Below, one piece after another: positions 29,373-59,852 of a stretch of 64,000 bases of DNA. Origin of the DNA: an uncultured virus (IMG/VR IMGVR_UViG_2934853166_000001). Its lineage: Duplodnaviria; Heunggongvirae; Uroviricota; Caudoviricetes. Below the pieces are notes generated by a model that was given only the letters and a program-made list of their open reading frames with translations, searched no databases and was not told the origin of the DNA. The position numbers and the translations under genes were made by a program. The stretch lies in the IMG/VR virus record IMGVR_UViG_2934853166_000001; one strand, 5' to 3'. Each line of letters begins with the position of its first letter. The first letter of the stretch is position 1.

Positions 29373-29413
29373 CTTCCGGTTGCTGGCAAGCAAACCGCGT
29401 GAGCAACGAAGCA

Positions 29414-29470
29414 ACTTGCTACCGGTTTGCCATGGCACTTGCTATCCGTTTGCCATGGCACCTGCCATCC
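29414..29470. repeat. 23-bp tandem repeat x2.5
   Basis: ACTTGCTACCGGTTTGCCATGGC / ACTTGCTATCCGTTTGCCATGGC / ACCTGCCATCC. Confidence 0.8.
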
Positions 29471-32677: not shown

Positions 32678-32935
32678 CTACGACGAAGCGGGCGCGGTGT
32701 CTTCGCCGAGGTTTCGGCGGCGCAGTGCCTCAACCGCAGCCTCACGCTCCCCGTCGGGCAAAGCCAGGACGCGCGACAACTCCTCCACCGAACCGGGGTC
32801 GATACGGCGGTGCTGGCCCGCTGTTCGGGCGGTACGCAGCAGCCCGTTCTTGCACCAGGCGATCACGGTCGACGCCGACACGTTCAGCCGCTCCGCAGCT
32901 TCGCTTGTCCGCAGCGGTTTGTCGCCGTCACCCAT
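32678..32935 (-). CDS. BldC/MerR-like HTH (excisionase-like)
   Basis: LRTSEAAERLNVSASTVIAWCKNGLL..ARTAGQHRRI. Confidence 0.85.
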   Translation of the reverse strand: MGDGDKPLRTSEAAERLNVSASTVIAWCKNGLLRTARTAGQHRRIDPGSVEELSRVLALPDGEREAAVEALRRRNLGEDTAPASS

Positions 32936-33044
32936 CGCCGCCCCCATCATCCGCACCTTCTGATCCTGCAAATTCTGCACAGTCTCGCACCGGTCGGTCG
33001 GCGAATGCGAGACGCGGTCGGTCGGGGTGTTGCCAACAACACCA

Positions 33045-33086
33045 AACCTACGAAAGCTGCGAATCCTGTAGAACCTGTGGCACACT
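33045..33086 (+). promoter_or_regulatory. Four 9-bp direct repeats over the tra promoter
   Basis: AACCTACGA AAGCTGCGA ATCCTGTAG AACCTGTGG, then -10-like CACACT. Confidence 0.55.
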
Positions 33087-33093
33087 GTCTGGC

Positions 33094-34605
33094 ATGACCG
33101 ACCGACCGACCACGACAGCCGACCGACCGGCACTCCGACCGGCCGCACTCGCACCCGAGTCGGTCGACGCCCCAACCCAACCGACCGACACCGACCACCC
33201 CCGCAACCGACTGAGCCGACTACTCCGACCGACCCGCACCGACAAGCCGACCGACCGGAAGGAGGCAACCGTGACCGACCACCGACCGACCGTCATCACC
33301 GCCCCGCCGGTCGACGCCCCCGCAAAGCCGGTCGGCCGAGTCGGTCGATGGCGTCAGCAGCGCACCGACAAGGCCGCCGACCGCGCCAACCGACTCGCCG
33401 AAGCGACCGACCGCGCCAACGCTGCCGCCGACCGCGCTGCCCGACTCCGCGCCACCCAGCAGCCCACCACCCAGCCGACCGACCGCACCGACGCCGACAT
33501 CGCCCCCATCCCCAACCGACTCACCTGGGCCGGCATCTGGGCCGACCGCACCTTCGGCGCAATGCCCCTCATCGCCCCGCTGCTGGTCTCCGGCTACTAC
33601 ACGATGAAGGTGTTCACCGGCGACCCCATCAGCGCCCACGTCCTCATCGCCTTCCTGGCTGCGTGCGCTCTCGAAGGCGGCGTGTGGAAGCTCGCCCGCC
33701 TCTACGAGGTCACGCTGGTCGCCGGGGACTCCACCATGGGGCTGCGCTTCGGCATCGGCATCTACCTCGCACTGATCTCCGGCCTCATCTACTGGCACGC
33801 CCTCCACGAGGCGAAAGCGCAAGGCCGCACTGAGCTGGGCGAAGACGCCCTACCCGCCATCGGCGTGGCCGTCATGTCCGCCCTCGGCGTGTACATCTGG
33901 GCCCGCCGCGCCCGCTGGGTGCGCCGCCGCGAACTCCACGCCGCCGGCCGCGTCGACACGCAGGCACCCAAGTTCGCCGCCCTCGCCTGGCTCCTCTGCC
34001 CCATCGAAACGCCGCTGGCGCTGCGGCACGCCGTCAAGTACCGCATCCAGTCGCCGACCGTCGCCGTCGAGGACCGCCGACTGTTCGTGGCCGCCGGCCG
34101 ACCGGCCATCTGGCCGCCGACCGACCGCAATGCCACCGCGCCCACCGACCGGCCCACTGTCGCCGACCACAAGCCGACCGACCGGACCGCACCCGCCGTC
34201 ACCGACCGGCCGGCGGCGTCGACCGCACCGACCTCCGCCCCGACTGCCGACCGACCGGCCACCAAGCCGACCCCCGCGCCGCCGACCGACCGGCGGATGG
34301 TCACCACCATCCCCGCACCACGACCGACCCTCACCCAACCGACCGCCCCGACCACCCAGCCCCGACCGGCCCCCGCCAAGCAGAACACCGACACCGACAC
34401 CGACCGACCGACCTTCACCACCGCCGCCATCGAGAACGCCGCCACCATCCGCGCCATGTTCGGCACCACCGACCGACTCAAGCTCGCCGACGTCCGCAAC
34501 GCCTTCGAACCCCGCTGGTCCTACGACAAGGCCAACCCCGCGTTCAAGGCGTACCTCGCCGGGGCCGACCAGCCGACCGACCAGCCCGCCGCAGCCAACG
34601 CGTAA
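33094..34605 (+). CDS. Spd/Tra-like membrane protein (4 TM) with TDRP-rich termini; alternative start GTG 33271
   Basis: Central four hydrophobic helices (LEGG); first gene of the traB operon; AAGGAGG before 33271. Confidence 0.7.
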   Translation: MTDRPTTTADRPALRPAALAPESVDAPTQPTDTDHPRNRLSRLLRPTRTDKPTDRKEATVTDHRPTVITAPPVDAPAKPVGRVGRWRQQRTDKAADRANRLAEATDRANAAADRAARLRATQQPTTQPTDRTDADIAPIPNRLTWAGIWADRTFGAMPLIAPLLVSGYYTMKVFTGDPISAHVLIAFLAACALEGGVWKLARLYEVTLVAGDSTMGLRFGIGIYLALISGLIYWHALHEAKAQGRTELGEDALPAIGVAVMSALGVYIWARRARWVRRRELHAAGRVDTQAPKFAALAWLLCPIETPLALRHAVKYRIQSPTVAVEDRRLFVAAGRPAIWPPTDRNATAPTDRPTVADHKPTDRTAPAVTDRPAASTAPTSAPTADRPATKPTPAPPTDRRMVTTIPAPRPTLTQPTAPTTQPRPAPAKQNTDTDTDRPTFTTAAIENAATIRAMFGTTDRLKLADVRNAFEPRWSYDKANPAFKAYLAGADQPTDQPAAANA

Positions 34606-34622
34606 CCGACCAACCGACCGGA
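33095..34622 (+). repeat. Dispersed strand-biased (A)CCGACCG(A) repeats, clt/TRS candidate
   Basis: Dense at 33095-33500 and 34100-34622; nearly absent from the TM-coding core. Confidence 0.75.
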
Positions 34623-34631
34623 GGACCACCA

Positions 34632-34910
34632 ATGACCGTCGACAACCTGCCCGCCCGGCGCACCGCCCCACGCGCGGTCGCCGTCATCACCACCGCCAAG
34701 CCCGCCCAGACCACGCCGCCGGCCAGCACCGGCAACTACCTGCCCGCGTTCCGGCTGGCCACCGCACTCGCCATCGTGTCGTTCGCGGTCGCCGTCCTTT
34801 CCGCCGCCTCCTACCTGGCCGACCGCAGCGAGCAGGCCGCACTGTGCGCCGGAGTCGCCGGGGCGCTCCTGGTCGTCGCCCTCGTCGAGTGGTGCCGGAG
34901 GCGAACGTGA
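34632..34910 (+). CDS. Small 2-TM protein (Spd-like)
   Basis: RBS GGAGG; two hydrophobic helices. Confidence 0.65.
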   Translation: MTVDNLPARRTAPRAVAVITTAKPAQTTPPASTGNYLPAFRLATALAIVSFAVAVLSAASYLADRSEQAALCAGVAGALLVVALVEWCRRRT

Positions 34911-35087
34911 TGACTGTGCGTGTTGTAGCCGCCAATATCGGTTGAAGCCGTTATCGCCGATGTAGCCCCAGGTCAGACCCCCCTCCCCGGCGCGAAAGAC
35001 CCTCACGGAGGGGGGTGCATGAAGCCGATGAAGCCTTCAACGCCACCACCCAACAACACGGAAAGTCACGAGAGGGGAGGCCGGGAA

Positions 35088-36560
35088 ATGACCGACACCA
35101 CCGCGACACAGCCGCCCGCAGCGGCCCCCACCAGCCCGCGACAGCAGCGGACCACCACACGCCCCACCGTGTCGGTGCGCCCGGTCGCCGTCGGAGCCGT
35201 CAACGCCGCCACCATCGCCGGAGCCACCGCCGTAGCCGCCGGAGGGGGCATCGCCCTGGCTGCGCTCGCCGGTGGTGCCGCGCTCGCCGCGACCGCCGCC
35301 GGGGCGCGCAAGACCGGCCACGCGAAAGCCAACAAGGCCGCCACCGGCAGCCCTTTTCGCAACCCCGCCCGGTCAGGCGGCAGCCCCGGCGGTGGAGGTG
35401 GTGGCCGGTCGGGTGGCGGGATGCCTCGCGCCGGCCGGTCCGGTGCCGCATCGCCCGGGGGCCGTGCGCCCGGGTCGAAGCCGTCACCCACCCCCCGCGC
35501 CGGAGGCCGCCCCAGCTCGACGGGCAGCACCAACGGCAAGGGCGGCGGGCTCCTGTCGAAGGTTCCCGGGTTGGGCAAGAGCACCCCCACCGGTAGCCGT
35601 ACCCCCGGCGGATCCCGCAACAGCAACCCTGGCAGCGGCCGGCGCACCACGCCCACCGGGCACCGTCCCGCCGGATCCCAGCCGGGCAGCAGCAGCCGCT
35701 CCCCGCTCACCGCAGACAAGGTCGCCGCCGCACGCCGCCGGCTCGCCAACCGCCGCCAGCCTGGTCCCCGCCTGTCAGACGCCATCCACAAGGCAACCCA
35801 GCCCGGCACCGACGGCAAGAAGCCCACCGCCCGGCAGGCGTGGCGGGCCGCCCGGCAGCAGGTCACCGGCATGACCCCCAAGAACCGGGGGGCGCTCCGG
35901 CGGGCCCTCGCTGGCCTCACGGCAGCCGCCCTCGCAGCCGCCAAGGCGGGCCGGGACAACCGGAACGCACGCAAGCGCCGCGAAGCCGCCCGCCAGGCAC
36001 TCGACGCCCGCCGCGCCGCACGCCTCGCCGCCGCCCAGCACGCCAACCGGACTGCCGTGGCACGCACCATCCGCCAACGCCCCGGAACCCCCACCAACCC
36101 CAACACCCACACGCACAGCAACAGCCCGGCGGTGAAGCCGGCACCCATCACCCCGATCGTCGCCGCCAAACCGGCCACCGTCACCGCAACAGGAGGAACC
36201 GTCATGTCCCGTCAACTGCTCGCCATCTCCGAGGACTTCCTGTCCGCCGCCGCCCGCAACCAGCCCGACGGCATGCTCCAGGTCACCGCCGAGGCGCACC
36301 TGATGCCGCAGATCCTCGACAACCTGTCCCGCGCGTTGAAGCTGCGCTACGACCAGGCCCTCAAGCAGCCCATGCACCCGGCCATCAAGGACATGTACGG
36401 GGAGATCCACAAGAACCAGGTGGCGGTGGCGTCCGCGTCGGAGGAGATCGGCCCGACCATCGAGCGGGTCCACAAGGACGAGCTGGAGCGGCTCCGCAAC
36501 CCGCTGATGCGCGGCGACGAGTCGATGTGGGACACCGTCAAGAACCGGGACGTCGCCTGA
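35088..36560 (+). CDS. TraA-like protein (Gly/Pro/Arg-rich linker, helical C-terminal domain)
   Basis: Coupled (TGATG) to traB; internal AGGAGG-ATG at 36204. Confidence 0.6.
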   Translation: MTDTTATQPPAAAPTSPRQQRTTTRPTVSVRPVAVGAVNAATIAGATAVAAGGGIALAALAGGAALAATAAGARKTGHAKANKAATGSPFRNPARSGGSPGGGGGGRSGGGMPRAGRSGAASPGGRAPGSKPSPTPRAGGRPSSTGSTNGKGGGLLSKVPGLGKSTPTGSRTPGGSRNSNPGSGRRTTPTGHRPAGSQPGSSSRSPLTADKVAAARRRLANRRQPGPRLSDAIHKATQPGTDGKKPTARQAWRAARQQVTGMTPKNRGALRRALAGLTAAALAAAKAGRDNRNARKRREAARQALDARRAARLAAAQHANRTAVARTIRQRPGTPTNPNTHTHSNSPAVKPAPITPIVAAKPATVTATGGTVMSRQLLAISEDFLSAAARNQPDGMLQVTAEAHLMPQILDNLSRALKLRYDQALKQPMHPAIKDMYGEIHKNQVAVASASEEIGPTIERVHKDELERLRNPLMRGDESMWDTVKNRDVA

Positions 36561-38791
36561 TGGCCGCACGTCGTGTCGACTGGAGTTTCGGGCCCGGCCA
36601 CGGGCCCGTCTCCGGGGCCATCAACGCCGCCGGCTCGACGCTCGCCGCGTCGATGGTCGCCGACCTCGCCCACGTGCAGCCGGTGTGGGGGGCGACCGCC
36701 GGTGCGGTCGCCGCCGCCGGTGCCGTCATCTCCTCCGCCGCCCACAACGCCCCCGGCCGCGCCCTCGCCTACCGGTCGCTGTGCTGGCTGGGCGCGGGCT
36801 GCTGGTCAACGTGGTCGCTGGCCACCGCCACCCTGGAGCGGTGGTCGGGGCCGTGGTCCACCAGCAACATCGCCGCCCTTGTTGTCGGCACAATCGGGGC
36901 TGCATACGCGGGCAGGGCCTTCCAGCGGGCACAGCAGCGGGAAGAGGACCAGCGGCAGGTCGCCATCGACATCGCCCGGGAAGCCGCCGCAATCGCCGCC
37001 GCCCACGCCGAGCAGCGGGCCGCCGACGGTGACCTCGACGCGCTCGCCGCCGTGTGGCGTAAGCGCATCGAACGGGTCTGCCACATCACCCTCGCCGAGG
37101 TGGACGGCATCGTCGGCATCGCCCACTGGGACGGACAGCCGTGCCCCGGCTACACCATCGACGGGAACTTCCCGCCCGGCGGGGCGTCGTGGAAACACCT
37201 CAAGAACTACGAGGAAGCGTTGGCGTCCGACGCGCGTCTCCCCGAGGGCTGCTCGGTGAAGGTGCTGCCCGGCGTCGACCGGGGGGCCTTCCAGATCGAG
37301 GTGATGCTCCGCAACGCGCTCGCCGAGAACAAGCCATACCCCCGGGAGTACCCGCACGAGTCCATCAACGACCCGCGCCTGCTGGTTTATCGGTCCAACG
37401 ACGAGCCGGTTCGGGTCAGCCTCCGCCAGGAGACGATGATCGTGGTCGGCCCGACCGGCTCAGGAAAGACCAACACCATGAACGAGGTGGTTGCCGAACT
37501 GGTGAAATGCGTAGATGTCATCAACTGCGCGATCGACTTCAACGGAGGCTCCATCGCCATACCGTGGCTGATGCCGTGGCGAACCGACCCCGAGTCGTGC
37601 CCCCGCCCGGCGTTCGACTGGATCGCCGACACTCCAGCGAAGGCGCTTGTGATGACCGAGGCGATCCTTGACGTGTTGAAGGACCGCAAGCAGGCGTACG
37701 CACACCTCAAGGTGGCCGCCAACGCCACGCTACTGCCGATCTCAGCCGACCTTCCGCTGTTCGAGGTCGTCGTCGACGAGGCCGCCGAAGTTCTCGGAAC
37801 CAGCGCAACACGAGATCCGATCGTGCGGCAGGTCGCCGAGAATCTGATGGAGATTCAGCGCATCGGGCGGGACGCCGGTGGGCGGCTGATCGTGTCTTCA
37901 CTGGGCGCGACGACCGAAACCCTCGGATCGCGTGGAATCAAGATTCACTCTCGGGTGAAGATGGCCATGGCAGGGACCCCCGCCGACGAGCTGGGCTACC
38001 TGTTCGACGACTACAAGATGGCACCCGAGGACGTCGTCCACGAGGGCAGCGCCCGCATTCGCATCGGCCAGAACGCCGTGTTCATCGGCAAAGTGCCGTA
38101 CCTACTGCCAGAGCAGATCGCCGAGATCGCCATCGCCACCTCGGACCGACGCCCAGCCCCCGACGACCGAGCATTGCAGATCATGGGTGACCGGTGGGCA
38201 GAGCGTTGGGAGCAGTCCACCGAACTGTTGGATCTTCTCGACTCGGGTGTGGCGGCCCTACGCGCCGGGGTGTCCGTCAGCGCCGCCGTCGCCGCTGTCG
38301 TGCCGCAGCAGCGTGCGGCAGGCGATATCACCGAACCTGCCAGCCGCACGGTCCGCAGCGAGCTAGCACCGTCGATCGGCGACGCCCAGGCCGACCTGGA
38401 GGCCGCCCGCCGCCGCCTCGCCGACATCGAACCGGTCCCCGACCCTGGGCCCCGCGAGTCGGAGCTGCCGCCGCTGCCGGAGGAGGCCGACTTCTCCGTG
38501 GTCGAATCGTGGCTGAACCCGGGCACCCCCGCCACCGACGACGCTGGCAAGCCGAAGCCGCACCCGCGCCGCCGCATGCGTCAGATCGTGTGGGACGCCG
38601 CCGACGCCGGTATCGGCCCCACCGCCGTCCACAAGCAGTTGGAGGCCGAGGGCTACGCCACCACCTACCCGACGGTCAACGGGTGGATGAAGGACGACGC
38701 CGCCAACGGCATCCTCAACCAGGACCGGGACCGTGCCCCGTACACGCGCGGGGAGAAGATGGCCAACCCGTATGAGCAGGACCAGGGCTGA
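36560..38791 (+). CDS. traB: TraB-type FtsK/SpoIIIE conjugative DNA translocase
   Basis: N-terminal TM helices; Walker A GPTGSGKT; Walker B VVVDE; R..GR arginine-finger region; C-terminal wHTH (PRRRMRQIV...IGPTAVHKQL...TV.GW). Confidence 0.88.
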   Translation: MAARRVDWSFGPGHGPVSGAINAAGSTLAASMVADLAHVQPVWGATAGAVAAAGAVISSAAHNAPGRALAYRSLCWLGAGCWSTWSLATATLERWSGPWSTSNIAALVVGTIGAAYAGRAFQRAQQREEDQRQVAIDIAREAAAIAAAHAEQRAADGDLDALAAVWRKRIERVCHITLAEVDGIVGIAHWDGQPCPGYTIDGNFPPGGASWKHLKNYEEALASDARLPEGCSVKVLPGVDRGAFQIEVMLRNALAENKPYPREYPHESINDPRLLVYRSNDEPVRVSLRQETMIVVGPTGSGKTNTMNEVVAELVKCVDVINCAIDFNGGSIAIPWLMPWRTDPESCPRPAFDWIADTPAKALVMTEAILDVLKDRKQAYAHLKVAANATLLPISADLPLFEVVVDEAAEVLGTSATRDPIVRQVAENLMEIQRIGRDAGGRLIVSSLGATTETLGSRGIKIHSRVKMAMAGTPADELGYLFDDYKMAPEDVVHEGSARIRIGQNAVFIGKVPYLLPEQIAEIAIATSDRRPAPDDRALQIMGDRWAERWEQSTELLDLLDSGVAALRAGVSVSAAVAAVVPQQRAAGDITEPASRTVRSELAPSIGDAQADLEAARRRLADIEPVPDPGPRESELPPLPEEADFSVVESWLNPGTPATDDAGKPKPHPRRRMRQIVWDAADAGIGPTAVHKQLEAEGYATTYPTVNGWMKDDAANGILNQDRDRAPYTRGEKMANPYEQDQG

Positions 38792-38794
38792 CAG

Positions 38795-39412
38795 GTGACC
38801 ACCTCCCAGATCCGCCGGCCGGGACAGCGCGTTACGTCCCGGCCGGCGTCGTGGGCACCACCCGACCAGTGGCGGCTCTATCGGGCGTGGGGTGACCTGC
38901 CCCGCGAATCCGGGCTGTGGTCGCGCGCCGTCTGCTGGCTGCTCGGCGGCTGGCAGCAACTCCTGTACATCGGCGTCACCCGCCGCACCGCTGTCGCCCG
39001 CTGGGCCGAACACCTCGACGGGAAGACGTGGGCCGGCGATGTGGCGTGCTGGGAACGCGACCCGCGAGTGTGGGCCACCGAAGCCGACGTGCTCGCCGTC
39101 GAACGGGCCGCGATCATCGCCGAGCGGCCCGTCCACAACGTGGCCCACAACGGCAACAACCCGGGTGCGGTGCGGGTGCGCCGGCACCTGCCCCGGCATG
39201 TGGTGCGCGCCCGTCTCCGCTGGACGGCACGCGCCTGCCTGTGGTTGGCCCTGTTCGCCGGCTGCTGGCTTGCCGCCGCCGACGTGTGGCACGGCTGGGA
39301 TGCGCCCCGCAACTCGGCTGTCGCAGCGACTGTTCTCGGCGGCCTCATGTGGTGGGGGAAAGCGCAGTCCCGCCGGCCGAAGAAGCGCCGCCGCGTGAGG
39401 CGTCGCCGGTGA
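38795..39412 (+). CDS. GIY-YIG nuclease with C-terminal TM helices
   Basis: LYR...LLYIGVT....RW.EH...E..AI..ERP.HN; two hydrophobic helices and a poly-Arg tail. Confidence 0.78.
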   Translation: MTTSQIRRPGQRVTSRPASWAPPDQWRLYRAWGDLPRESGLWSRAVCWLLGGWQQLLYIGVTRRTAVARWAEHLDGKTWAGDVACWERDPRVWATEADVLAVERAAIIAERPVHNVAHNGNNPGAVRVRRHLPRHVVRARLRWTARACLWLALFAGCWLAAADVWHGWDAPRNSAVAATVLGGLMWWGKAQSRRPKKRRRVRRRR

Positions 39413-39687
39413 CCGCCCCCTGGCAGTGGGTCATCTGCCGCACCGGGCCCCGCGAGCTTGTGGTCGACGCCGGCACCCAACACACCCGCCTGTACTCGGC
39501 ACCAGACGAGATCGCCGCCGAACGCCTCACCGTCTACGCCTACAACCAAGTCCTCGCCGGCCGCCCAGTCCACCCCGACCAGCTCGTGTGCCGGGTGCGG
39601 CGGGCCGGCGAACACACATGGTCCGGCACCGCGACCGGCGACCGGATCCTGCTCCCCACCACCACACCAACCAGGAGGCCCGCATGA
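39409..39687 (+). CDS. Hypothetical protein
   Basis: GTGA/ATGA coupling within the tra operon. Confidence 0.5.
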   Translation: MTAPWQWVICRTGPRELVVDAGTQHTRLYSAPDEIAAERLTVYAYNQVLAGRPVHPDQLVCRVRRAGEHTWSGTATGDRILLPTTTPTRRPA

Positions 39688-40358: not shown

Positions 40359-40375
40359 TTCGGCCGGAGACGCAA

Positions 40376-40417
40376 GAAGCGGCCCCGCTCCTCCATCGTG
40401 GAGGGCGGGGCCGCTTC
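40376..40417. terminator. Bidirectional terminator
   Basis: GAAGCGGCCCCGC...GCGGGGCCGCTTC between convergent genes. Confidence 0.75.
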
Positions 40418-40428
40418 GTGTCTGTCGT

Positions 40429-41628
40429 TCAGCCTGCCCGTGTCGCCAACTCGCGCACCAACCCGCGCCCCCGCTCCACAGCAGGGACCGCATCCACCAC
40501 CCGCCCCACAGTGAACCGCACCAGCTCGTTGTGATGCGCCACCGGCAGTGCGTCGAGGACGTCACCCGCGTACCGGATGCCCCCCGACACGTCCCCGCCC
40601 CGCACCATCCCGGCAGCCCGATGCAACTGCACCTGCGCCCGCAGCCGAATCTGCTGGGCCGGATACAGGGCCATCGCCCGATCCTGCGCCTCGGCGGCCT
40701 CCCGCGTCCTGCCCGCGTGGGTGAACACCCACGACCGGGTGTGCGCGGTGCGCGTCTCCGACCACCCCCACAGTGATCCGCCGTCCGGGGCGTCCGCCGG
40801 AAGCTGGTCCGCCATGTCCGTCAGGCGGTTGACCATCGCCACCGCCTCCGCGTGCCGGCCCGCCAGAGACAGCGCCTGCGCTTGCCCGGCCAGCAGTTGA
40901 CATCCGGCCACCGAAGGCGCACCCACCGGCGGAAGGCTCTCCGCCGACGCCGGCAGCCCGGCCACGGTCCGCCCGTCATAGCAGCCGTTGACGGTGTCCC
41001 AGGCCAGGACCCACCGCTGCACACCAGCATCCGCCGACAGCTCAGCCATCCGCCGAGCCGACGCCCACCACCTGCGTGCCGCGACCTGCTCGCCAGCCGA
41101 CACCTGCTCCAAAGCCACCAGCGTCGACAACAGCCCCGCCACACCCAGCAGACGCTGCCGATGCTGCCCGTCCGTGGCCGCGATCTGATGGCCGAGCACG
41201 TCCAGGTCCGCCCGCAGGCTCGCCATCAGCCGTTCTGCTGGAAGCTGGTAGTAGTCCACCCCGTATCCGGCCACGATGCTCGTCCACTCGTCGTGGTCGA
41301 CGGCCACACCGAGGCCGTGGCGTAGCGCCTCCCACCCCGTCAGTCGGTCCACCGCCGGGGCAGCCGCTAGGGCCCCCATCGCCTGCAAAACTCTCCGTCT
41401 GCGCATGTCCGTGTCGCCTGCCCGTCTACTCGCGTACGCGTCGGTTAGCGCCCCGCCCGCCTCAAGCGCATTGTCGTATGCGGCAACCACATCCGTCGAT
41501 GCTGGGCGTGTGCCGCGCTCAACCTGCCCGAGGTACCCGAAGTCGTAGCCGATCCGAGCCCCGAACTTCCGCAGCGACCAGCCGGACGCCTTACGCCGCT
41601 GCCTCAGTATGTGTCCGAAATCGTCCAT
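40429..41628 (-). CDS. XRE-family regulator with TPR-like C-terminus
   Basis: FGHILRQRRKASGWSLRKFG.RIGYDFGYLGQVERG.R; helical repeats. Confidence 0.85.
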   Translation of the reverse strand: MDDFGHILRQRRKASGWSLRKFGARIGYDFGYLGQVERGTRPASTDVVAAYDNALEAGGALTDAYASRRAGDTDMRRRRVLQAMGALAAAPAVDRLTGWEALRHGLGVAVDHDEWTSIVAGYGVDYYQLPAERLMASLRADLDVLGHQIAATDGQHRQRLLGVAGLLSTLVALEQVSAGEQVAARRWWASARRMAELSADAGVQRWVLAWDTVNGCYDGRTVAGLPASAESLPPVGAPSVAGCQLLAGQAQALSLAGRHAEAVAMVNRLTDMADQLPADAPDGGSLWGWSETRTAHTRSWVFTHAGRTREAAEAQDRAMALYPAQQIRLRAQVQLHRAAGMVRGGDVSGGIRYAGDVLDALPVAHHNELVRFTVGRVVDAVPAVERGRGLVRELATRAG

Positions 41629-42024
41629 GCTGTCCCCCCAGCGTGTGGGCAGTTGTGTGGGCCCACTGCTCACCCCTGCCACCCGCCCATCCTATCGACC
41701 ACTCTGGACGTGTCGGGACAAGCACCCGACGCCGAAAAGCGCGGTAGACCGCAGGCCAGAGGCCGTTGCCTACCGCTGCCGGCGCGGTGTGGTGGCCAAC
41801 CGGGACCCCCAGCCCCCAAGGCCACCACACCCCGCAGAATGTCGGAGGTGCGCGGTGGGATACCGGTGGACCAGCAACACGCCCCGCGACCGTTTCGAGG
41901 ACCCACCGATGCCCGACAGCGAGCCTGACGCCGACAGCGGCGAGCACCTGGACGCCGACCATCAGTTCGCCGCCGGAGCATCCGGCCGCCGACCCCGCAA
42001 CCGCAGCAACCGGTGGGGGCAGCG

Positions 42025-42246
42025 GTGACCTTCAACATCCCTGAGGACGTCAGCAAGCCAAGCGAAGCCGTGATCGCTGGCTGGTGGGAGACGTACCGGG
42101 CGCACACCCTCCGCGAGGGCCGTTGCCCCGTCTGCGATGTGCCGCACCGGTGCATGGTGTGGGCGAACGCCCGCGCCGACCTCGTCATCCACGGGCTACT
42201 CGGTCCCGACGGCGGGCCGATCAAGGCGGACGACCCCAACGTCTGA
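42025..42246 (+). CDS. Small Zn-binding hypothetical protein
   Basis: H.....CPVC...C. Confidence 0.5.
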   Translation: MTFNIPEDVSKPSEAVIAGWWETYRAHTLREGRCPVCDVPHRCMVWANARADLVIHGLLGPDGGPIKADDPNV

Positions 42247-42259
42247 CCCTGGACGCACG

Positions 42260-42296
42260 AAAGCGCCCCGCCGGCCGAGGCCAAGCGGGGCGCTTT
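42260..42296. terminator. Bidirectional terminator
   Basis: AAAGCGCCCCGC...GCGGGGCGCTTT. Confidence 0.7.
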
Positions 42297-42326
42297 GCTG
42301 TGCGGGCGGCCGAGGAATGCGCGTTC

Positions 42327-42605
42327 CTACTCGGCGGCTGCTGGGCGTCCGGGGCCGCGCGGTGGGCCGACGCGCTTGCGGTGGGCGGTGACCCGTCGGC
42401 GCACCTCGGACACGCTCACCCCCACCTGTTCGGCTACCTGCTCCTCTGCGGTGGTAGTGCGTGCGTCGGCGATGGCAGCGTCTTGCTCGGCGGCGATGGC
42501 GGCTTTGATCTCGGGGGCGAGGTCGCGTAGTGCCTGGTAGCGGGCGAGCGGGTCAGCCAGGTGGGTGGTAGCTGTGAGGCGGGCGGCGAGGTCGGGGAGG
42601 TCCAT
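42327..42605 (-). CDS. Small HTH protein with AT-hook-like tail
   Basis: EEQVAEQVGVSVSEVRRRV; RGPGRP; TAGAAT 7 nt before ATG. Confidence 0.7.
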   Translation of the reverse strand: MDLPDLAARLTATTHLADPLARYQALRDLAPEIKAAIAAEQDAAIADARTTTAEEQVAEQVGVSVSEVRRRVTAHRKRVGPPRGPGRPAAAE

Positions 42606-42611
42606 GCGGGA

Positions 42612-42658
42612 AATTCTAGCCCACCCTGTTGCATGGAATTCTAGAGCACGCTAGAATT
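42612..42658. promoter_or_regulatory. Divergent promoters with AATTCTAG operator repeats
   Basis: TTGCAT-N17-TAGAAT (+); AATTCTAG at 42612 and 42637, inverted copy at 42651. Confidence 0.75.
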
Positions 42659-42692
42659 TAGGCACAGGGAAGAACGGCAAGGGGGAACCAAG

Positions 42693-42965
42693 ATGAGCAT
42701 CGACCGCATCGCCAACGAGATTCGCCGGGCCTACGGCACCCACGTCACGGTGACCTACCGGGGTGCCTGGATGTCCTTCCGGACCCTGGCGGAGCGCACC
42801 GACCTCACCGCCGCCCAGATCGCCGACGGGGTCCGCTACCTCGCCCAGACGGACCTCCGCTGCACCATCGCCCCCGAGAGCAACCAGGTTGCCCTCACCA
42901 GCCTCGACCGCGAGCTGGCGGTGCGGTACGGCGGCCAGGACAACCACCTCATCGCCTGGAGCTGA
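42693..42965 (+). CDS. Hypothetical protein
   Basis: RBS; follows promoter. Confidence 0.65.
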   Translation: MSIDRIANEIRRAYGTHVTVTYRGAWMSFRTLAERTDLTAAQIADGVRYLAQTDLRCTIAPESNQVALTSLDRELAVRYGGQDNHLIAWS

Positions 42966-43026
42966 CCACCCCGGGGTCGGCCACCCGGCCGGCCCCACCC
43001 CACCCCCCCCAGCAGAGGAGCCCGCC

Positions 43027-43386
43027 GTGCCCACCATCGCCGCTACCCGGCTCGCCCCCGCCGAGATCACCGCCGCCGCCATCGCCCGCTACGGCCACGA
43101 GGACGGCGCGATCGCCGACATCCTCGCCGGCACCCCCGTCATCCTCATCAGCGTCACCCCCGCCGGCCGGGGCATGGGCCGCGCCATCCAGATCCTCGTC
43201 GGCCCCGCGATCCGTTTCAGCGACGACGGCACCCACGTGTACGCGGTCGACCCCGACGTCATCTACGGCTACTACCTGTCCGGCCGGCGGGCCGAGGGTG
43301 ACACCTGGCAGGCCGCCACCCGCCGCGCCACCCGGCGCATCCTGGCCGACAACACCCTGCCCGTCGACATCGAGCGCCGCCGCTGA
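43027..43386 (+). CDS. Hypothetical protein
   Basis: RBS GAGGAG. Confidence 0.6.
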   Translation: MPTIAATRLAPAEITAAAIARYGHEDGAIADILAGTPVILISVTPAGRGMGRAIQILVGPAIRFSDDGTHVYAVDPDVIYGYYLSGRRAEGDTWQAATRRATRRILADNTLPVDIERRR

Positions 43387-43399
43387 GCCCGACGCAAAA

Positions 43400-43431
43400 C
43401 GGCCCCGCCCCCACGAGGGGAGCGGGGCCGC
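43400..43431 (+). terminator. Hairpin terminator
   Basis: CGGCCCCGC...GCGGGGCCG. Confidence 0.65.
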
Positions 43432-43536
43432 TCTGCGTCTACCCCCGCATGCGCGGGGAGCGGTCGCTGATCGGTAGCGACAGTGGATCACCCCCGGCGA
43501 GCCGGGGACGTGGTAATGCTACCGCCAGGCAGCCAC

Positions 43537-43585
43537 GTAAAGCAGGTTTACATCTCTCAGCTCCATGATGTAAGATAGCCTTACA
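43537..43585 (+). promoter_or_regulatory. Promoter with two operator palindromes
   Basis: GTAAA-N5-TTTAC and TGTAAG-N5-CTTACA; TTTACA-N18-TAAGAT. Confidence 0.7.
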
Positions 43586-43603
43586 CCGACTGGAGGGGTT
43601 CCC

Positions 43604-44131
43604 ATGGCAGCCATCGGCACCGACCGCGCCACCCAGATCATCAACGACGCCCACGCCGCCGGCATCACCGACGAGCAGCTCGCCACTCTCGCCCGCTACC
43701 CGGTCGCCGACATCCAGTACATGTCCGGCCGCGAGGCAAGCCAGCTCACCATGGCCATCATCGAGCGCGCCCACGAACTCAAGCAGCGCGAAGCCGCCCT
43801 CACCGAACTGCGCCGCATCGCTGCCATCGCCGGCCACAACCCCGACGTGATCGCCGCCAAGGTCGCCACCAAGACCACCGACGAGATCACCAAGCTGATC
43901 GCCGACACCACCGCGTACCTGCGCGGCAAGGGCATCGACACCCGCCCCGAGCAGCCCGCCCACCCGGCCACCACCCGGCAGATCAACTACATCATGGACC
44001 TCCTCGCCCGCCGCAAGCGTGCCGGCGACGGCGGCGGCTTCATAACCGGCCCCACCACCCGCGAGGGTGTCGCCAAGATGACCGCCGAGGACGCCAGCCT
44101 CTACATCACCTCCCTGACCGAGAACTACTGA
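43604..44131 (+). CDS. Hypothetical protein
   Basis: RBS GGAGG; AT.RQI.YI..L...T...AS.YI..L C-terminal motif. Confidence 0.7.
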   Translation: MAAIGTDRATQIINDAHAAGITDEQLATLARYPVADIQYMSGREASQLTMAIIERAHELKQREAALTELRRIAAIAGHNPDVIAAKVATKTTDEITKLIADTTAYLRGKGIDTRPEQPAHPATTRQINYIMDLLARRKRAGDGGGFITGPTTREGVAKMTAEDASLYITSLTENY

Positions 44132-44141
44132 GGAGCATTCC

Positions 44142-44597
44142 GTGCCCACCACCGACGACCTCGCCGCCCGCGCTGCCAAGGCCATCGCCGACCACTACGC
44201 TGCTGACCTCGCCATCCGCGACACCATGCCCGCCGACCCGACCAGCAGCACCGAGGCCAGCTACGTCGACCAGCGGGCCCGCTCCTACCGGGCCGCCGCC
44301 GACGTGGTGACTGCCGCCGTCCGCGCCGGGGTGCCGCACTGGCGCATCGCCGACCTGGCCGGCTGCGGTGGCCTCACCGTCATCGACATGATCGACGACC
44401 GGGCGTTGCGCACAGCCGCCTACGTGTCCGAGAAGCACCGCGCCCGCCGGCACCTGGACGCGGTGGAGCAGGCCATCCGCGACCACGCCCGCCGAGTCAT
44501 TGGCGCGCAGAACGGGCGCGGCAAGACGCAGCTCACCCGTGAGCTGGGGATCTCCCGGCCGACCCTGGACGCCTGGCTAGAGGCCGACGAAGGCTGA
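44142..44597 (+). CDS. Protein with C-terminal HTH
   Basis: GKTQLTRELGISRPTLDAWL. Confidence 0.75.
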   Translation: MPTTDDLAARAAKAIADHYAADLAIRDTMPADPTSSTEASYVDQRARSYRAAADVVTAAVRAGVPHWRIADLAGCGGLTVIDMIDDRALRTAAYVSEKHRARRHLDAVEQAIRDHARRVIGAQNGRGKTQLTRELGISRPTLDAWLEADEG

Positions 44598-44612
44598 CCC
44601 CGGACACGACGA

Positions 44613-44649
44613 AACGGCCCCGCTCTCCCTGGTGGGAGGCGGGGCCGTC
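44613..44649 (+). terminator. Hairpin terminator
   Basis: ACGGCCCCGC...GCGGGGCCGT. Confidence 0.65.
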
Positions 44650-44761
44650 GCTGTCTCAGGGACGCCAGGAACACGCTTTCCTTGCCGCGCCGTAAACGCC
44701 GAGCTGGCCGCTGTCGCCTCCCAGACAGCCCCACACCCCACCCGCCGCTACCGTGCCGGCG

Positions 44762-45085
44762 GTGCAGACCCTCACCCTCAAAGCCGGCAGCCTCGGCCGC
44801 ACCTGGCACGCCGCCCACATCCTCATCTCCGCCATCACCTGCGGATGGTGGCTACCCATCTACGGCATCCACACCCTCATCTCCATGGCCACCCGCCCCA
44901 CCATCCAGATCGACGTGCCCGACGGCCACCGGGTGGAGTACCGCGACGGCTGGCCCAACGTCCTCGCCCCCGACGAATACCTGCAACCCCGCACCACCCG
45001 GGAGAAGGCGCTCATCGTTGCCGGCTACGCTTCGCCCGCGCTGATCCTCGCCGCGATCCTCGCCGGCATGACCATCCGAGGTTGA
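44762..45085 (+). CDS. Small membrane protein
   Basis: HILISAITCGWWLPIY helix and C-terminal TM; TACCGT 7 nt before GTG. Confidence 0.65.
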   Translation: MQTLTLKAGSLGRTWHAAHILISAITCGWWLPIYGIHTLISMATRPTIQIDVPDGHRVEYRDGWPNVLAPDEYLQPRTTREKALIVAGYASPALILAAILAGMTIRG

Positions 45086-45662
45086 CCGGGCGTGGCCTGC
45101 GGGTATCCCAGCAGGTGTGGATCGTGAGCATTGGCGGGTACTGGCGGCACGGCACAGCCGATGCGACGTCGAGCCCCGCCGCTGCCGCGACTGCCACGCC
45201 CTGTATCCGTGCTGGTATCGGCTGAGGGCGGACCGGGAACTCAACCCGCCCGGCGGGTAGCCGCCTCATCCCGCACCGGAACACGCCCGTCGCCATGCCG
45301 TTCCCACACCTCCGCCAGCATCAGCAGGGCACGACGCCGCTCATCGCGGTGCGCCTCCACCTCGGCGGGGGTGCGCCGACGGCACGCCTCCACCACCGCC
45401 CGCATCCAATCCCGCACGCCAATCCCCCCGATCTGTTGTTGCACATCAAGCATCCACCGTCGATGCCAGCCACGCCGCACACCACCTAGCCCAAACCGCG
45501 CCGCCGATCGACGCCCGCCATCAGCCGATCAACGCAAGAAAGGGGGCCGCCCCACCTTGTCCGCTGCCCGCGTGGCGGCGTGGCATAGCAGACAGGTGGG
45601 GCGGCCCTGGGCGGCACCGGCGCTGGGGAGCCAAACCGGGTGCCCGCTCGTGGGGTGCGAAG

Positions 45663-46031
45663 TCAGGCGAGCCTCTCGGCGGCACCAGCCGGCTTGTCCT
45701 TCACACCGCTCTCCTGCGCCGCATCCGAGACACCCGTCGGCTTGAACAAGCCGAAGTGCACCGCCACGGCGATGCCGAAGTTGATGGCCGTGCTGTACAC
45801 GACCGGGATCCACTCGAACACCGCCGCCGTGTTCTCCGCCTGCAACCACGCCGACAGCACCGAGTTGATCGCGGACAGGGCGAGCAGAAGCACCGCCTTC
45901 ACACCAGGGCTGGTGGAGCGGCGGGTGACGAGACCGACGAGGATCGGCAGAACGATGGTGATGGCCAGAGACAGCAGCCCACCCAGGTTGGGGGCGAAAC
46001 CGTACACGGGCAGTGCGGGAATGTCGCTCAT
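45663..46031 (-). CDS. Putative holin
   Basis: Three TM helices, charged C-terminus, end of lysis cassette. Confidence 0.75.
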   Translation of the reverse strand: MSDIPALPVYGFAPNLGGLLSLAITIVLPILVGLVTRRSTSPGVKAVLLLALSAINSVLSAWLQAENTAAVFEWIPVVYSTAINFGIAVAVHFGLFKPTGVSDAAQESGVKDKPAGAAERLA

Positions 46032-46112
46032 GTGACCCCTCCCAGGGGTGATCTTTGAAGGGCCCGCCCACGAGATGAGGGCAGGCAGAAGGAACCGCCT
46101 ACGATCGGCGGC

Positions 46113-46373
46113 GTGGCAGGTCAACCGCAGGTGCGCGAGTCGGCTTGGCTGTACGCGCCCGGCGACCCGTACGTGCCCATCGCCCACGTCCGGCTGGAAG
46201 AACGCATGGACGGCAGCGGCGCATGGGACCTGTACGTGTCCGACCCGGCGTCAGCGCCAAGTCAGCATGCTCGCTGGCCCGACGAAGACGGGGCCCGCGC
46301 CGAGCTGGACCGCATCTACGAGGCCGGGAGAGCCGACGGCGAATGGCAGATCATCAGCCACCACAGCTACTAG
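46113..46373 (+). CDS. Hypothetical protein antisense within the lysis cassette
   Basis: TACGAT 7 nt before GTG. Confidence 0.6.
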   Translation: MAGQPQVRESAWLYAPGDPYVPIAHVRLEERMDGSGAWDLYVSDPASAPSQHARWPDEDGARAELDRIYEAGRADGEWQIISHHSY

Positions 46374-46693
46374 CGGCGAACCCGCGCCGCCCGATCCTGC
46401 TCCACAAACCGCTTGTACGACAGCACCCGCAGGATCAGCAGGGCGTCTATCACGGCCAGCGACCCCAGGCCGAACACGGCATCCACCGTGTCCACATGGC
46501 TGGTCGTCGGCCACCGCAACACCAGCAGCACGATCTGCCGTACGTACAGCAGCGCCGCCAACAGCACCCACCCGGAGGCATCCCACGCGGCCAGCCGCCG
46601 CCACCGGCGGGGCCGATGCCACGACAGGAACGCCAACGCCGACACCAACCCGACGATCAGTAGCACCAGCAGCGCCACCCGATACGTGATCAA
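46370..46693 (-). CDS. 3-TM membrane protein (lysis accessory/holin-like)
   Basis: Hydrophobic helices, position in cassette. Confidence 0.7.
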   Translation of the reverse strand: MITYRVALLVLLIVGLVSALAFLSWHRPRRWRRLAAWDASGWVLLAALLYVRQIVLLVLRWPTTSHVDTVDAVFGLGSLAVIDALLILRVLSYKRFVEQDRAARVRR

Positions 46694-46929
46694 CTTCCCC
46701 CCACCACCTGCCTCAACCAGTCGTCGTACTTGTTGGCCACGTTGTGGGCGCGCAACCGCTCAGCCAACCGATCAGCCTCCACCCGACGCCGAGCAGCCAC
46801 CAAACGATCCTGCTCCGCCCGCGACACAGACTCATCCGCCCGCAACGACGCCTGCCGCGCCTCAGGTGATGGCTGGCGTCCCCTGCCCAACGGCCACAAG
46901 CCGCGCACCACTCGCCGCCACCACCTCAT
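46690..46929 (-). CDS. Lysis-cassette hypothetical protein
   Basis: Overlap-coupled to both neighbours. Confidence 0.6.
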   Translation of the reverse strand: MRWWRRVVRGLWPLGRGRQPSPEARQASLRADESVSRAEQDRLVAARRRVEADRLAERLRAHNVANKYDDWLRQVVGGS

Positions 46930-47252
46930 GACACGTAGCCCCCCGGATGCGTCGGATGCCCGAGCTTGTCCAGCAGGCCAGTCGCCGTCCGAGCAGTCTC
47001 CACCGCAGCGTTCGCCGCCCGAGACGCGTCAATGAACGCATCCCGCGTCGCCTGATGCGCGTCCCGCTCCGTCTCGTACGCCGAACGCCACGTATCCCGA
47101 TCAGCCTTCATCTGCTCATGCGCACCCTTGGGTATCAGCCAGCCCAGCAGGATCAGCACCAGGACTATGCCCGGCACACCCCATTGCAGGATCGCGCCGA
47201 ACACGTTCGAGGGGTCAGCGGACCCAGCGTCGGCGGCCCAGCGGATCAGCAT
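46926..47252 (-). CDS. Membrane protein (1 TM + coiled coil), lysis cassette
   Basis: WGVPGIVLVLILLGWLIP followed by coiled coil. Confidence 0.7.
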   Translation of the reverse strand: MLIRWAADAGSADPSNVFGAILQWGVPGIVLVLILLGWLIPKGAHEQMKADRDTWRSAYETERDAHQATRDAFIDASRAANAAVETARTATGLLDKLGHPTHPGGYVS

Positions 47253-47286
47253 CGGCCGTCCCCCGTGTCAGTGATGGTGTGGCCGG

Positions 47287-48192
47287 TCAGGACTCGCTGA
47301 CACGGCCGGTGAACGTGAACGTCGCCGGCAGGACGAGCTGACCGGCCGGACCCTGCGGACCCGCGTCACCCTTCGGACCCTGCGGACCAGCCGGGCCAGC
47401 GGGACCTGGCTTACCCGCCGCGCCGTACTTGAGGACGATGCACTTGTGGAGCTGCATGTTGCCCCACGCATCGAACACATCACCCGACGTCGCCGACGAC
47501 CCGGCAGCCTTCCGCATCGCCAGCACCGCGCCCGACGTTTGCTTGCCGTAGGTACCGTCCGACGACCCGGACGGCAGGAACCCTAGGTGCTCCAGGGCGA
47601 CCTGGAGGGCTTTGACGTGCTCGCCCTGGTCCCCGAGCTTGCATGCAGCGAACATGGTGTATGCCTCCCCGGCGAGCAGTCCGATGGTCATCAGGTAGCG
47701 GCGGAACAGCGGGGTCTGGTCCCGGCCCGCCTTGGTCGAGTCGCGGAAGAAGCTGAAGTGGGTGTGCCAGAGGTGGGAGTTGTCGCCGGTGCTGCGCTTG
47801 CCGAGCCGGTCCCACCGCTTGACCGTCTTGCCGTCGGGGGAGTAGATGATCTCCCTGATGTCGGCGGTGTCCGCCGCCCCCCGCTGGCACTCACCCACAC
47901 ACCACACCGAGAACGACCGCAGGTCATGGGTGCGGCCACCCGACTGCACCGAGAACGTGCCCACATCCAGACCGGAAGCGAACTCACTCAGCCCCGCCTT
48001 GTCCCGAGGTGACTCGGTGGCCGCATACCCGGTCGCTGCCTGCTCCGGCAGACCCAGGTGGTACGAGTTGCCCTGCTGGACGTGCGCGGTGTCGCCCACC
48101 ACGCCAACCTCCGCCGACTCAAGCCCGTGCGGGCCGAGATGCGTGATCAGCAGGGAGCGGACCTGCATCAGGTTGGATGGTGCGCGGGTCAC
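47287..48192 (-). CDS. Endolysin: Zn-peptidase-like domain + PG-binding domain + collagen-like tail
   Basis: SYH...LD...SHLWHTHFSF; GDQGEHVKALQ..L...G.....DG.YG..T; (Gly-X-Y)9. Confidence 0.75.
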   Translation of the reverse strand: MTRAPSNLMQVRSLLITHLGPHGLESAEVGVVGDTAHVQQGNSYHLGLPEQAATGYAATESPRDKAGLSEFASGLDVGTFSVQSGGRTHDLRSFSVWCVGECQRGAADTADIREIIYSPDGKTVKRWDRLGKRSTGDNSHLWHTHFSFFRDSTKAGRDQTPLFRRYLMTIGLLAGEAYTMFAACKLGDQGEHVKALQVALEHLGFLPSGSSDGTYGKQTSGAVLAMRKAAGSSATSGDVFDAWGNMQLHKCIVLKYGAAGKPGPAGPAGPQGPKGDAGPQGPAGQLVLPATFTFTGRVSES

Positions 48193-49690: not shown

Positions 49691-49715
49691 TATGTCTCCT
49701 CGAAGGTGGGGGTGG

Positions 49716-50648: not shown

Positions 50649-50691
50649 CCCCGCCTCCCCTCAGGTGAGCAGGGCCAGACAGGGGCAGAGA

Positions 50692-59851: not shown

Positions 59852-59852
59852 G

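Follow-up and report, generated by a model that had tools for sequence, protein, structure and literature searches.

A putative TraB-type DNA-transfer operon in a lineage of large temperate siphoviruses from Micromonospora-like hosts

Among the closest described counterparts of the element considered here is the plasmid-phage pZL12 (phage ZL12; 90.4 kb) of Streptomyces, for which conjugal transfer by its tra gene has been reported (PMC3583192). The element was found in a stretch of 64,000 nucleotides from an uncultured virus of the Caudoviricetes (IMG/VR IMGVR_UViG_2934853166_000001; the whole stretch is termed the window), in which a seven-gene operon on the plus strand at 33271-40358, comprising genes g69 to g75, encodes a predicted TraB/FtsK-like double-stranded DNA translocase, g72. 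Like pZL12, the element is a tailed-phage genome with a TraB-type transfer gene. Unlike pZL12, which is a free plasmid with ParAB (PMC4487206), g72 lies in a 353,556-bp contig and its relatives are classed as proviruses and bear integrases; moreover, the host of pZL12 is Streptomyces, whereas the element described here has a Micromonospora-like host and displays no ParA match in a Pfam scan of the window, where a domain resembling ParB/GmrSD_N (27333-27926) is the only partition-like feature. It is nevertheless conceivable that the element has a free form once excised. Integrating plasmid-phages are known, as reported for PhiNon1 (PMC5431353), and the plasmid-phage pSLE1 is reported to carry two integrases (PMC4487206).

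A second group of related systems are the integrative and conjugative elements of actinomycetes (AICEs), such as pSAM2, pMR2, SLP1 and pMEA300. As here, they are described as carrying Tra, Spd-like membrane proteins, a Nudix protein (Pif) and GntR/XRE regulators, together with an excisionase-type helix-turn-helix (HTH) protein, Rep and site-specific integration (PMC2440964). Pif is the Nudix conjugal immunity factor that acts in pSAM2, and the GntR-family repressor KorSA is an AICE regulator (PMC2440964). The corresponding set in the window comprises g72 (Tra), g75 (Nudix), g67 and g3 (GntR/XRE) and a Rep-like gene at 14507-15757. AICEs, however, are units of 9-24 kb with int located directly before attP and without virion genes (PMC2440964), whereas here the corresponding genes are scattered along 45 kb, in one arm of a phage of about 110 kb, with no adjacent integrase. 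AICEs are also bounded by att repeats and often lie in a tRNA gene; no compact 9-24 kb unit with its own int directly before attP, att repeats and a tRNA was found, and the set is not independent of virion genes, being linked to tail genes in all ten records compared and in genomes with terminal repeats.

Since the list of open reading frames (ORFs) of this G+C-rich DNA (63-76% G+C) is heavy in shadows (311 ORFs in 44 kb), genes were called from G+C by codon position, and the resulting 105 genes were all compared with Pfam and PHROGs and scanned with NCBIfam. The seven operon genes are tightly coupled and are flanked by early-type genes on one side and by lysis and tail genes on the other, which agrees with the arrangement proposed by the first-pass annotation, a reading of the nucleotide letters by a model. 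From g71 to g75 the genes are joined by stop/start overlaps (TGATG, GTGA, ATGA) or by 3-nt spacing, and the operon is closed by a hairpin terminator at 40373-40420, with 16-nt arms that are 94% complementary, between the convergent genes g75 and g76. The first gene, g69 (33271-34605), begins with a GTG preceded by a strong AAGGAGG and encodes a 444-residue membrane protein, in which hydropathy reveals four hydrophobic segments and whose tail is rich in PTDR. Its neighbours in the atlas are DUF2637, SpdB_N and HTH_SpdB_C (score 0.89), which provides a lead only towards an SpdB/DUF2637-like identity. It is followed by g70 (34632-34910), a protein of 92 residues with two transmembrane segments (hydropathy 2.15 for each), and by g71, the putative partner of TraB, which starts at 35019 or 35571 and ends at 36560. 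A GGAGG lies ahead of the ATG at 35019, and the long form (513 residues) has one transmembrane segment and a Gly/Ser/Pro/Arg-rich linker. Conservation in g71 is confined to the C-terminal ~110 residues, which are 28-33% identical to the gene directly 5' of TraB in two plasmids (L056 and L057) and, likewise, in phages Hiyaa and P1312 and in three uncultivated viral genomes (L005-L007). Downstream of g72, g73 (38795-39412) encodes a GIY-YIG-like protein with a C-terminal transmembrane segment and a basic tail; it matches two endonuclease families of PHROGs (phrog_3312, E 2.5e-9; phrog_16880, E 1.9e-6), has no Pfam match and is 41% identical to the gene 3' of TraB in the viral genome G444. The 92-residue g74 (39409-39687), with no known family in Pfam or PHROGs, is translationally coupled on both sides. 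The last gene, g75 (39684-40358), encodes a Nudix hydrolase (PF00293, E 9.9e-17; phrog_1198, E 6.7e-19) that probably starts at the ATG at 39684, preceded by AGGAGG, rather than at 39618 where the gene caller had placed it. Homologues of g75, 42-53% identical, occur in six related records, and this Nudix holds the same position as Pif in AICEs.

The central protein, g72 (36560-38791; 743 residues), contains the Walker A motif GPTGSGKT at residue 297 and the Walker B motif VVVDE at residue 403, both of which had been anticipated in the first-pass annotation. Residues 3-580 align with positions 21-591 of the 742-position 'FtsK/SpoIIIE-like' profile phrog_31069 (E 7.7e-81), and the top structure matched by the profile of the g72 family in the PDB is FtsK (2iuu, E 1.4e-4), collinear across two stretches. 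The protein thus has the features of a P-loop motor of the FtsK/SpoIIIE-like kind, with a family match that spans most of its length. The protein has a conserved C-terminal domain of ~70 residues, which by hhalign aligns with the penultimate domain of the Streptomyces relatives and not with FtsK_gamma. The best relative is a protein of M. wenchangensis (80% identity), followed by about 25 proteins of Micromonospora, Salinispora and Polymorphospora (38-69%), while Streptomyces relatives begin only at ~35% identity. Because the nearest homologues of g72 come from Micromonospora, the host is Micromonospora-like, rather than Streptomyces, as far as these homologies can tell. The earlier label 'Streptomyces-type' does not hold as a statement of family and would at most describe the mechanism of g72. 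A megablast of 45.6-64 kb against phages revealed a single case of near-identical phage DNA, a 247-nt stretch of Micromonospora phage pMLP1; the closest isolated phage by tail protein is the Streptomyces phage Kromp (39%). Single-protein scans of genome contigs and viral contigs returned no relatives of g72, and neither did the metagenome scan. A profile scan of genome contigs found only four loci, distant and from Streptomyces or metagenome-assembled genomes. In a class-level sample, 8 of 401 genomes contained a match, all at 33-37% identity, and in the family and in the order of G330 a match was found in one of 56 genomes each.

Counterparts of the operon are found on plasmids as well as in phages. 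Plasmids pFQ12 (Frankia) and NZ_CP108596 (Streptomyces sp. NBC_01177) display, as here, a large membrane protein, a small protein, a g71-like protein and TraB, the latter 35% identical over residues 4-558, and in NZ_CP108596 a DUF2637 protein occupies the position equivalent to g69. In the 16-kb plasmid pAGRA3207_2 (Actinomadura), TraB is 35-39% identical over 60% of the query and a GntR regulator is present; no g71-like match was found there. All three are plasmids of 16-52 kb, with no phage structural genes in the stretches examined. Phages Hiyaa, Galactica, Spocter, Keanu and P1312 (phrog_31069) encode an ATPase 30-31% identical to g72 with a membrane protein nearby, and in Hiyaa (gp101) and P1312 (the C-terminus of ORF64) a g71-like gene lies directly 5' of the ATPase, as in the window. 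In the Thermobifida phage P1312 a serine recombinase is located two genes from the ATPase. Unlike the operon described here, the stretches examined in the Hiyaa group and P1312 have no annotated Nudix. Overall, g72 is nearer to the plasmid proteins (35% identity) than to those of the Hiyaa-group phages (30%).

In a different interpretation, the ATPase serves the phage in another way, by moving or retaining phage or host DNA across hyphal cross-walls in the course of infection, by interfering with FtsK-dependent chromosome segregation and sporulation, or by partitioning the prophage into spores. The Hiyaa-group phages and P1312 came from lytic plaques, and a segregation or development function was assigned to the gene by their authors; PHROGs files the g72 family under 'moron, auxiliary metabolic gene and host takeover', and the module is found in genomes that are clearly packaged. 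Against such a use, the same four-gene set is present on small actinomycete plasmids, whose sole long-range need is transfer, a Nudix in the position of Pif and Kor-like regulators accompany the module, and transfer by the tra gene has been reported for pZL12. The two interpretations also overlap, as spread inside the mycelium belongs to the TraB/Spd mechanism. A role of this other kind is considered possible but rather doubtful.

The position of the operon within the phage was established by comparison with relatives. A search with one tail protein identified the IMG/VR proviruses G440 (111.7 kb) and G441 (108.6 kb), with which the window is collinear from 3.8 to 64 kb (blastn identity 78-87%) and whose tail proteins are 90-94% identical to those of the window. 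Beyond the right end of the window, G440 continues with minus-strand late genes through connector, capsid, protease, portal and TerL, followed by 38 kb that contain DnaB, a replication initiator, a helicase, pol III beta, WhiB, RusA, an exonuclease and Ant. The integrase at the same far end differs in type between these proviruses, tyrosine in G440 (109.1-110.5 kb) and large serine in G441 (107.2-108.6 kb), at ~83% nucleotide identity otherwise. As a separate observation, a transposase gene lies among the early genes of G440 (L040; 93103-94260; phrog_506, E 5.5e-122), with a 68% identical copy in G438. Given that the integrase of G440 is about 110 kb away, the tra operon lies in a ~45-kb arm between lysis and the att/int end, the phage integrase is placed outside the window, and the prophage is far larger than the first-pass annotation had assumed. 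The proposed circular map has the order int, replication genes, terminase, head, tail, lysis, ~45-kb arm and att/int. The genome G451 (97,469 bp), which has an exact 70-bp terminal repeat and is described in IMG/VR as having 'direct terminal repeats' and as 100% complete, has the arm with g67 and Nudix between an endolysin (50.5 kb) and an integrase (91.7 kb), and its map, if opened next to int, yields the order of the G440 prophage.

Landmark searches by tblastn on seven further whole IMG/VR records with a homologue of g67, the conserved gene beside the operon (the eighth such record being G441), extended this comparison. In all seven, replication genes and (TerL) are followed by tail genes, then by an operon of the tra type on the opposite strand, by g67 and by the arm, the arm genes being Nudix, g29, GntR and Rep-like. 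Tail genes, tra-type operon, g67 and arm genes were therefore found together in 10/10 records (the window, G440 and the eight records with g67), with the tra-type operon always between g67 and the tail/lysis genes; this is the synteny that had been proposed as a check on the initial reading. A search with the TraB profile identified three more near-complete viral genomes, G442, G443 and G444, each of which encodes an integrase, a TraB 30-33% identical to g72, a g71-like partner and a membrane protein. G442 and G444 have terminal repeats of 91 and 123 bp. These genomes share genes with the lineage (tail genes at 40-67% identity in G444 and 25-55% in G442; MCP, portal and TerL of the head at 59-63% to G440 in G443). 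Pairing of an integrase with a TraB-like gene, which had been thought unusual for a prophage, was thus observed in P1312, G442, G443, G444, G440 and G441. On the evidence of gene order, the module has a constant, syntenic place in this phage lineage, as it does in related genomes with terminal repeats.

An arrangement of two adjacent elements was also considered, namely a ~65-kb prophage from int to holin next to a ~45-kb conjugative plasmid or AICE-like element (1-45.6 kb) with its own recombinase at 1-942. A XerC-like tyrosine recombinase is indeed encoded at 1-942, and the genes typical of AICEs (Rep-like initiator, GntR, Tra and Nudix) are present in the arm. In metagenome run X2, contig breaks occur at 45653/45663. 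G438 and G439, which are more distant proviruses, stop 1.3-4.3 kb beyond the lysis/tail genes without the arm, although these records may simply have been trimmed. The adjacency is, however, maintained in 10/10 records despite the different integrase at the far end of G440 and G441, homology between the window and G440 is unbroken over the junction at 44668-45679 (84% identity), and G451, with its terminal repeat, has arm and phage in one 97-kb molecule. In addition, there is no att repeat near 45.6 kb, and read depth in the source run is alike on either side (154 vs 159-160). Two separate elements therefore appear improbable. As the first-pass annotation had stated, no second integrase, Rep or direct-repeat boundary marks an inserted unit: no integrase or Rep family was detected by Pfam, PHROGs and NCBIfam between 29 and 46 kb, and no flanking direct repeats of at least 18 nt were found around the operon. 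Its view of the operon as part of the phage genome, rather than as a nested AICE, is likewise borne out by the ten syntenic records and by the TraB modules of viral genomes with terminal repeats, and the tra module is, with high probability, an integral part of a single phage element.

The slot is conserved to a greater extent than its content. With g72 as query, none of the four records G438-G441 gave a match, and the slot operons became apparent only by gene-by-gene comparison. In G440 and G441 the region equivalent to 32.7-40.4 kb of the window is replaced by another operon of the same strand and size, comprising a 548-553-residue first gene, small genes, a 462-466-residue gene, an ATPase and a 227-241-residue gene; in G440 a GntR/UTRA regulator is divergent beside it. 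The slot ATPase is a P-loop protein of 751 or 670 residues with weak matches to PF01580 and plasmid_TraB (NF041214, 33 bits for G440). The ATPases of the window, G440 and G441 align with each other only around the Walker motifs, and for each of the three the nearest relatives are on actinomycete plasmids (34, 92 and 84 records, at 23-39% identity). These comparisons define a fixed slot in which the content is exchanged among at least three plasmid-type ATPase families. A TraB-like ATPase is recognisable in 9/10 records, the exception being G451. On a contig of a soil metagenome (run X2, record 10), g69-g70 and g73 are kept with few changes and 34910-38796, that is g71 and g72, is replaced by 3,961 different letters; ATPase and partner therefore diverge or are exchanged as a pair.

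Replacement of cassettes between near-identical phages is also what an exclusion or defence function might produce, with a membrane ATPase, a Nudix and a nuclease blocking incoming plasmids or phages and being swapped in an arms race. The Nudix Pif is an immunity factor in pSAM2, and the GIY-YIG-like nuclease is coupled to the ATPase. A scan with PADLOC, however, found no convincing defence family, g72 having matches at the level of the P-loop only (E 1e-5, no full stretch) and the Nudix match being weak, and the closest relatives are transfer-type genes of small plasmids, so that a defence cassette is quite improbable. Even less credit is given to the proposal that the operon is a relic of some old fusion between plasmid and phage, now inert and functionless, since its seven ORFs are all undamaged and coupled, as are the Walker motifs undamaged, and intact operons fill the slot in 9/10 related records.

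The region upstream of the operon contains regulators and a repeat array. Gene g67 (31127-32446, minus strand) encodes 439 residues with an N-terminal XRE-type HTH (Pfam HTH_3, E 3.3e-4) and is the conserved marker beside the tra slot, with homologues in eight IMG/VR records (57-84% identity; 84% in G441). Gene g68 (32678-33085, minus strand), transcribed divergently from the tra operon, encodes an excisionase-family/MerR-like HTH protein (PF12728 HTH_17, E 9.2e-10; TIGR01764 'excise', 36.7 bits against a cut-off of 28.8), and its true start is probably near 32950. The 8-mer CGACCGAC has 28 copies in the window against 9.7 expected, a number reached in none of 100 shuffles, and 22 of the 28 fall within 32993-34581. 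Thirteen exact copies, on both strands, form an array at 32993-33483 in the divergent region between g68 and g69, together with three 13-nt GCCGACCGACCGG units; 11 of the copies, again on both strands, are in the ~320 bp from g68 to the ribosome-binding site of g69. Nine more lie at 34118-34581, where they encode the PTDR repeats of the g69 tail. Arrays of short repeats are characteristic of clt loci, as reported for the 8-bp TRS of pSVH1, the nine 9-bp repeats of pJV1 and the four 7-bp repeats of pWTY27 (PMC3583192). The CGACCGAC array is real in statistical terms and constitutes a candidate cis site, either clt or operator. In pFQ12 six TGACGCAA repeats lie directly 3' of TraB, and the same motif, CCGACCGA, is found in G443 upstream of its membrane gene. 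Clusters of 10-12 copies of 8-mers of the CCGGTCCG/CCGGACCG type were also noted near the TraB-like genes of P1312 (L014, 14135-14781) and G444 (L007, 7069-8199). Repeat arrays beside TraB-type modules may be general.

These data suggest a mechanism, modelled on plasmids and AICEs, in which the g72 ATPase would assemble at the membrane as a hexameric-type ring after excision or entry of the phage, bind the repeats on the phage replicon and pump the replicon as double-stranded DNA into adjacent hyphae or through cross-walls. Spreading would be assisted by the membrane proteins g69 and g70, the g75 Nudix would limit transfer between carrier cells in the manner of Pif, and the HTH proteins of g67 and g68 would keep the operon silent during lysogeny. 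In this way a route that needs no particles would become available to the phage, as has been reported for pZL12. The g69/g70 membrane proteins, g71, g72, the Nudix, the HTH genes and the CGACCGAC array may together represent a plasmid/AICE-type DNA-transfer module at the centre of the arm, an assignment to which we give an even chance. That DNA transfer or spread is what this module does receives slightly less confidence, and we infer its conjugative nature, and the dual spread by virions and conjugation, by analogy with these systems. More tentatively still, this lineage of large temperate phages of Micromonospora-like hosts might consist of dual-route elements, each a virus and an AICE-like conjugative element at once; it is proposed with similar reserve that the TraB-type motor would act on arrays of the CGACCGAC kind and that cassette swapping would set transfer specificity or exclusion groups.

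Several observations weigh against a transfer function. At the level of the protein family, g72 scores 22.2 bits with the NCBIfam equivalog plasmid_TraB (NF041214), far below the cut-off of 800, and has no above-threshold match to PF01580 FtsK_SpoIIIE, which in an 80%-identical relative (P0002) reaches 21.3 bits only. The transmembrane helices that had been assigned to it on first inspection are only moderately hydrophobic: mean Kyte-Doolittle values in the Ala/Gly-rich segments are 1.43 (42-60) and 1.24 (103-121), short of the threshold of 1.6 used for hydrophobic segments. In pWTY27 TraA, transmembrane segments are reported at 68-90 and 102-124 (PMC3583192). The winged HTH that had been assigned to the C-terminal domain was not recovered either, as that domain has no Pfam match at E up to 10. 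In the repeat region, part of the CGACCGAC array also codes for the PTDR peptide repeats, and an in-frame upstream ATG at 33095, which has no ribosome-binding site, would make a further part coding. G440 and G441 share CCGTCACC repeats despite their unrelated ATPases, and CCGTCACC repeats also come after the first membrane gene in G445, G446, G447 and G449; the repeat motif may thus be linked to the first membrane gene and not to the ATPase. In G451, where g67, a membrane protein and the Nudix are kept, no TraB-like ATPase was found with the queries used. With respect to the biology, virulent Streptomyces phages have FtsK/SpoIIIE-like genes that are discussed in relation to host development (PMC13587820), a setting in which conjugation makes little sense, and the authors of P1312 proposed DNA segregation for its FtsK-like gene (PMC4569894). 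An integrated prophage would moreover need to excise and replicate without lysis of the donor. Finally, the ends of the element are unfixed because no att sites were found (no att repeats in the window, in comparisons of the ends of G440 and G441 with their interiors, or in G439; the longest exact matches are 12-15 nt), and G438 and G439, as described above, stop short of the arm. Among the sequencing runs, the full operon was found in the probable source run only, no RNA run was listed with it, and no excision-like joints were detected in contigs of the sequencing runs.

The window as a whole probably covers two thirds, from the left, of a single large prophage of a temperate siphovirus, of ~110 kb judged from its relatives. 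No tRNA genes were found in the 64 kb. Downstream of the operon, g76 (40429-41682, minus strand) encodes an NsdA-family TPR-like regulator (NF053720, 46 bits, cut-off 75), with an ORF open as far as 41682; its homologue in G440 has 411 residues and an HTH_31 domain, and identity is 86-88% in G440 and G441. Small arm genes g77-g83 (42013-45489, plus strand), with no known family in Pfam or PHROGs, converge on the lysis genes; g82 is 86% identical in G440. The lysis cassette (45663-48192, minus strand) comprises a holin (45663-46031; phrog_8269, E 9.5e-19), two small membrane proteins and a PG_binding_1/collagen-repeat lysin (47287-48192; PF01471, E 5e-7); 16 endolysin-related loci were also found. 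The pMLP1-like segment, 247 nt at 88% identity, lies within the lysin gene at 47691-47937. Contigs of the source run break exactly there, and a 151-nt piece at this site is deeper (240 vs 160), which suggests that the genome contains this segment at another place as well. From 48218 to 63960 the minus strand encodes the siphovirus tail and the head-tail joining proteins, among them fibres, Gp37-like and Dit (PF14594, E 5.5e-37; PF25595, E 1.2e-48), including a tape measure at 52868-57097 (minus strand), assigned by tape-measure PHROGs, and the major tail protein gene at 58168-58674 (minus strand); the products of this set are 90-99% identical in amino-acid sequence to those of G440 and G441.

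The rest of the ~45-kb arm (964-29023) consists of many small ORFs and is collinear with G440 and G441 from 3.8 kb on. Pfam and PHROGs identified a GntR gene (2716-3192), a MazG-like gene (3765-4091) and the Rep-like HTH_36 initiator (14507-15757), which is of the HTH_36/phage-initiator type and is neither RepSA nor RepAM. The ParB/GmrSD_N-like nuclease-domain protein (27333-27926, plus strand; 197 residues; PF03235, E 3.7e-14; PADLOC NsnA, E 3.7e-11) is 90% identical in G441 and 51% in G450, and may represent a partition-like or an anti-defence/defence gene of the arm. At the left edge, positions 1-942 (plus strand) encode a complete XerC/XerD-like tyrosine recombinase of 313 residues, its start coinciding with the window's first base (TIGR02224, 143.6 bits, cut-off 335; PF00589, E 3e-27). 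No counterpart was found in G440, G441 or the other viral records compared, and the gene may be the prophage's own or be part of a neighbouring element or of the host. The adjacent interval 1470-2510 has an odd composition (GC skew +0.21, AT skew -0.38) and no called gene; it contains a minus-strand ORF (1639-2508) of 289 residues with a signal-peptide-like start and a Thr/Pro-rich body. A 23-nt tandem repeat with GCCATGGC (two copies, 91% alike) was observed at 29414-29459, adjoined by perfect hairpins built on GGCCGCCCACC at 29039-29067 and 29342-29372. All lie within the 450 nt that separate g65 from the plus-strand early genes, and this region of repeat and hairpins (29039-29459) possibly combines terminators with an operator or an origin.

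Phage genomes with TraB/FtsK-like genes (P1312 and the Hiyaa-like phages), the conjugative plasmid-phage pZL12 and integrating plasmid-phages are already on record. Among the literature matches listed, none was a paper describing a TraB module in integrated Micromonospora prophages. Within the literature covered, the new elements are a Micromonospora-type integrating phage lineage with a transfer operon fixed in its genome plan, the swapping of three unrelated ATPase families between close phage relatives (about 83% nucleotide identity, tail proteins 90-94%), and the repeat array. Surveys of phage-plasmids are reported to detect conjugation through relaxase and mating-pair models (CONJscan; PMC7969092), to which single-protein transfer of the TraB type is invisible. 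The swapped cassettes and the repeat array constitute direct experimental handles. Should the module have another role, it would still represent a set of phage genes that is widespread in actinomycetes and unexplained. Should its action resemble that in pZL12, mycelial actinomycetes would host phages able to move with neither particles nor a receptor, with consequences for the host range of phages, for gene flow among antibiotic producers and for the exchange of modules between AICEs and phages.

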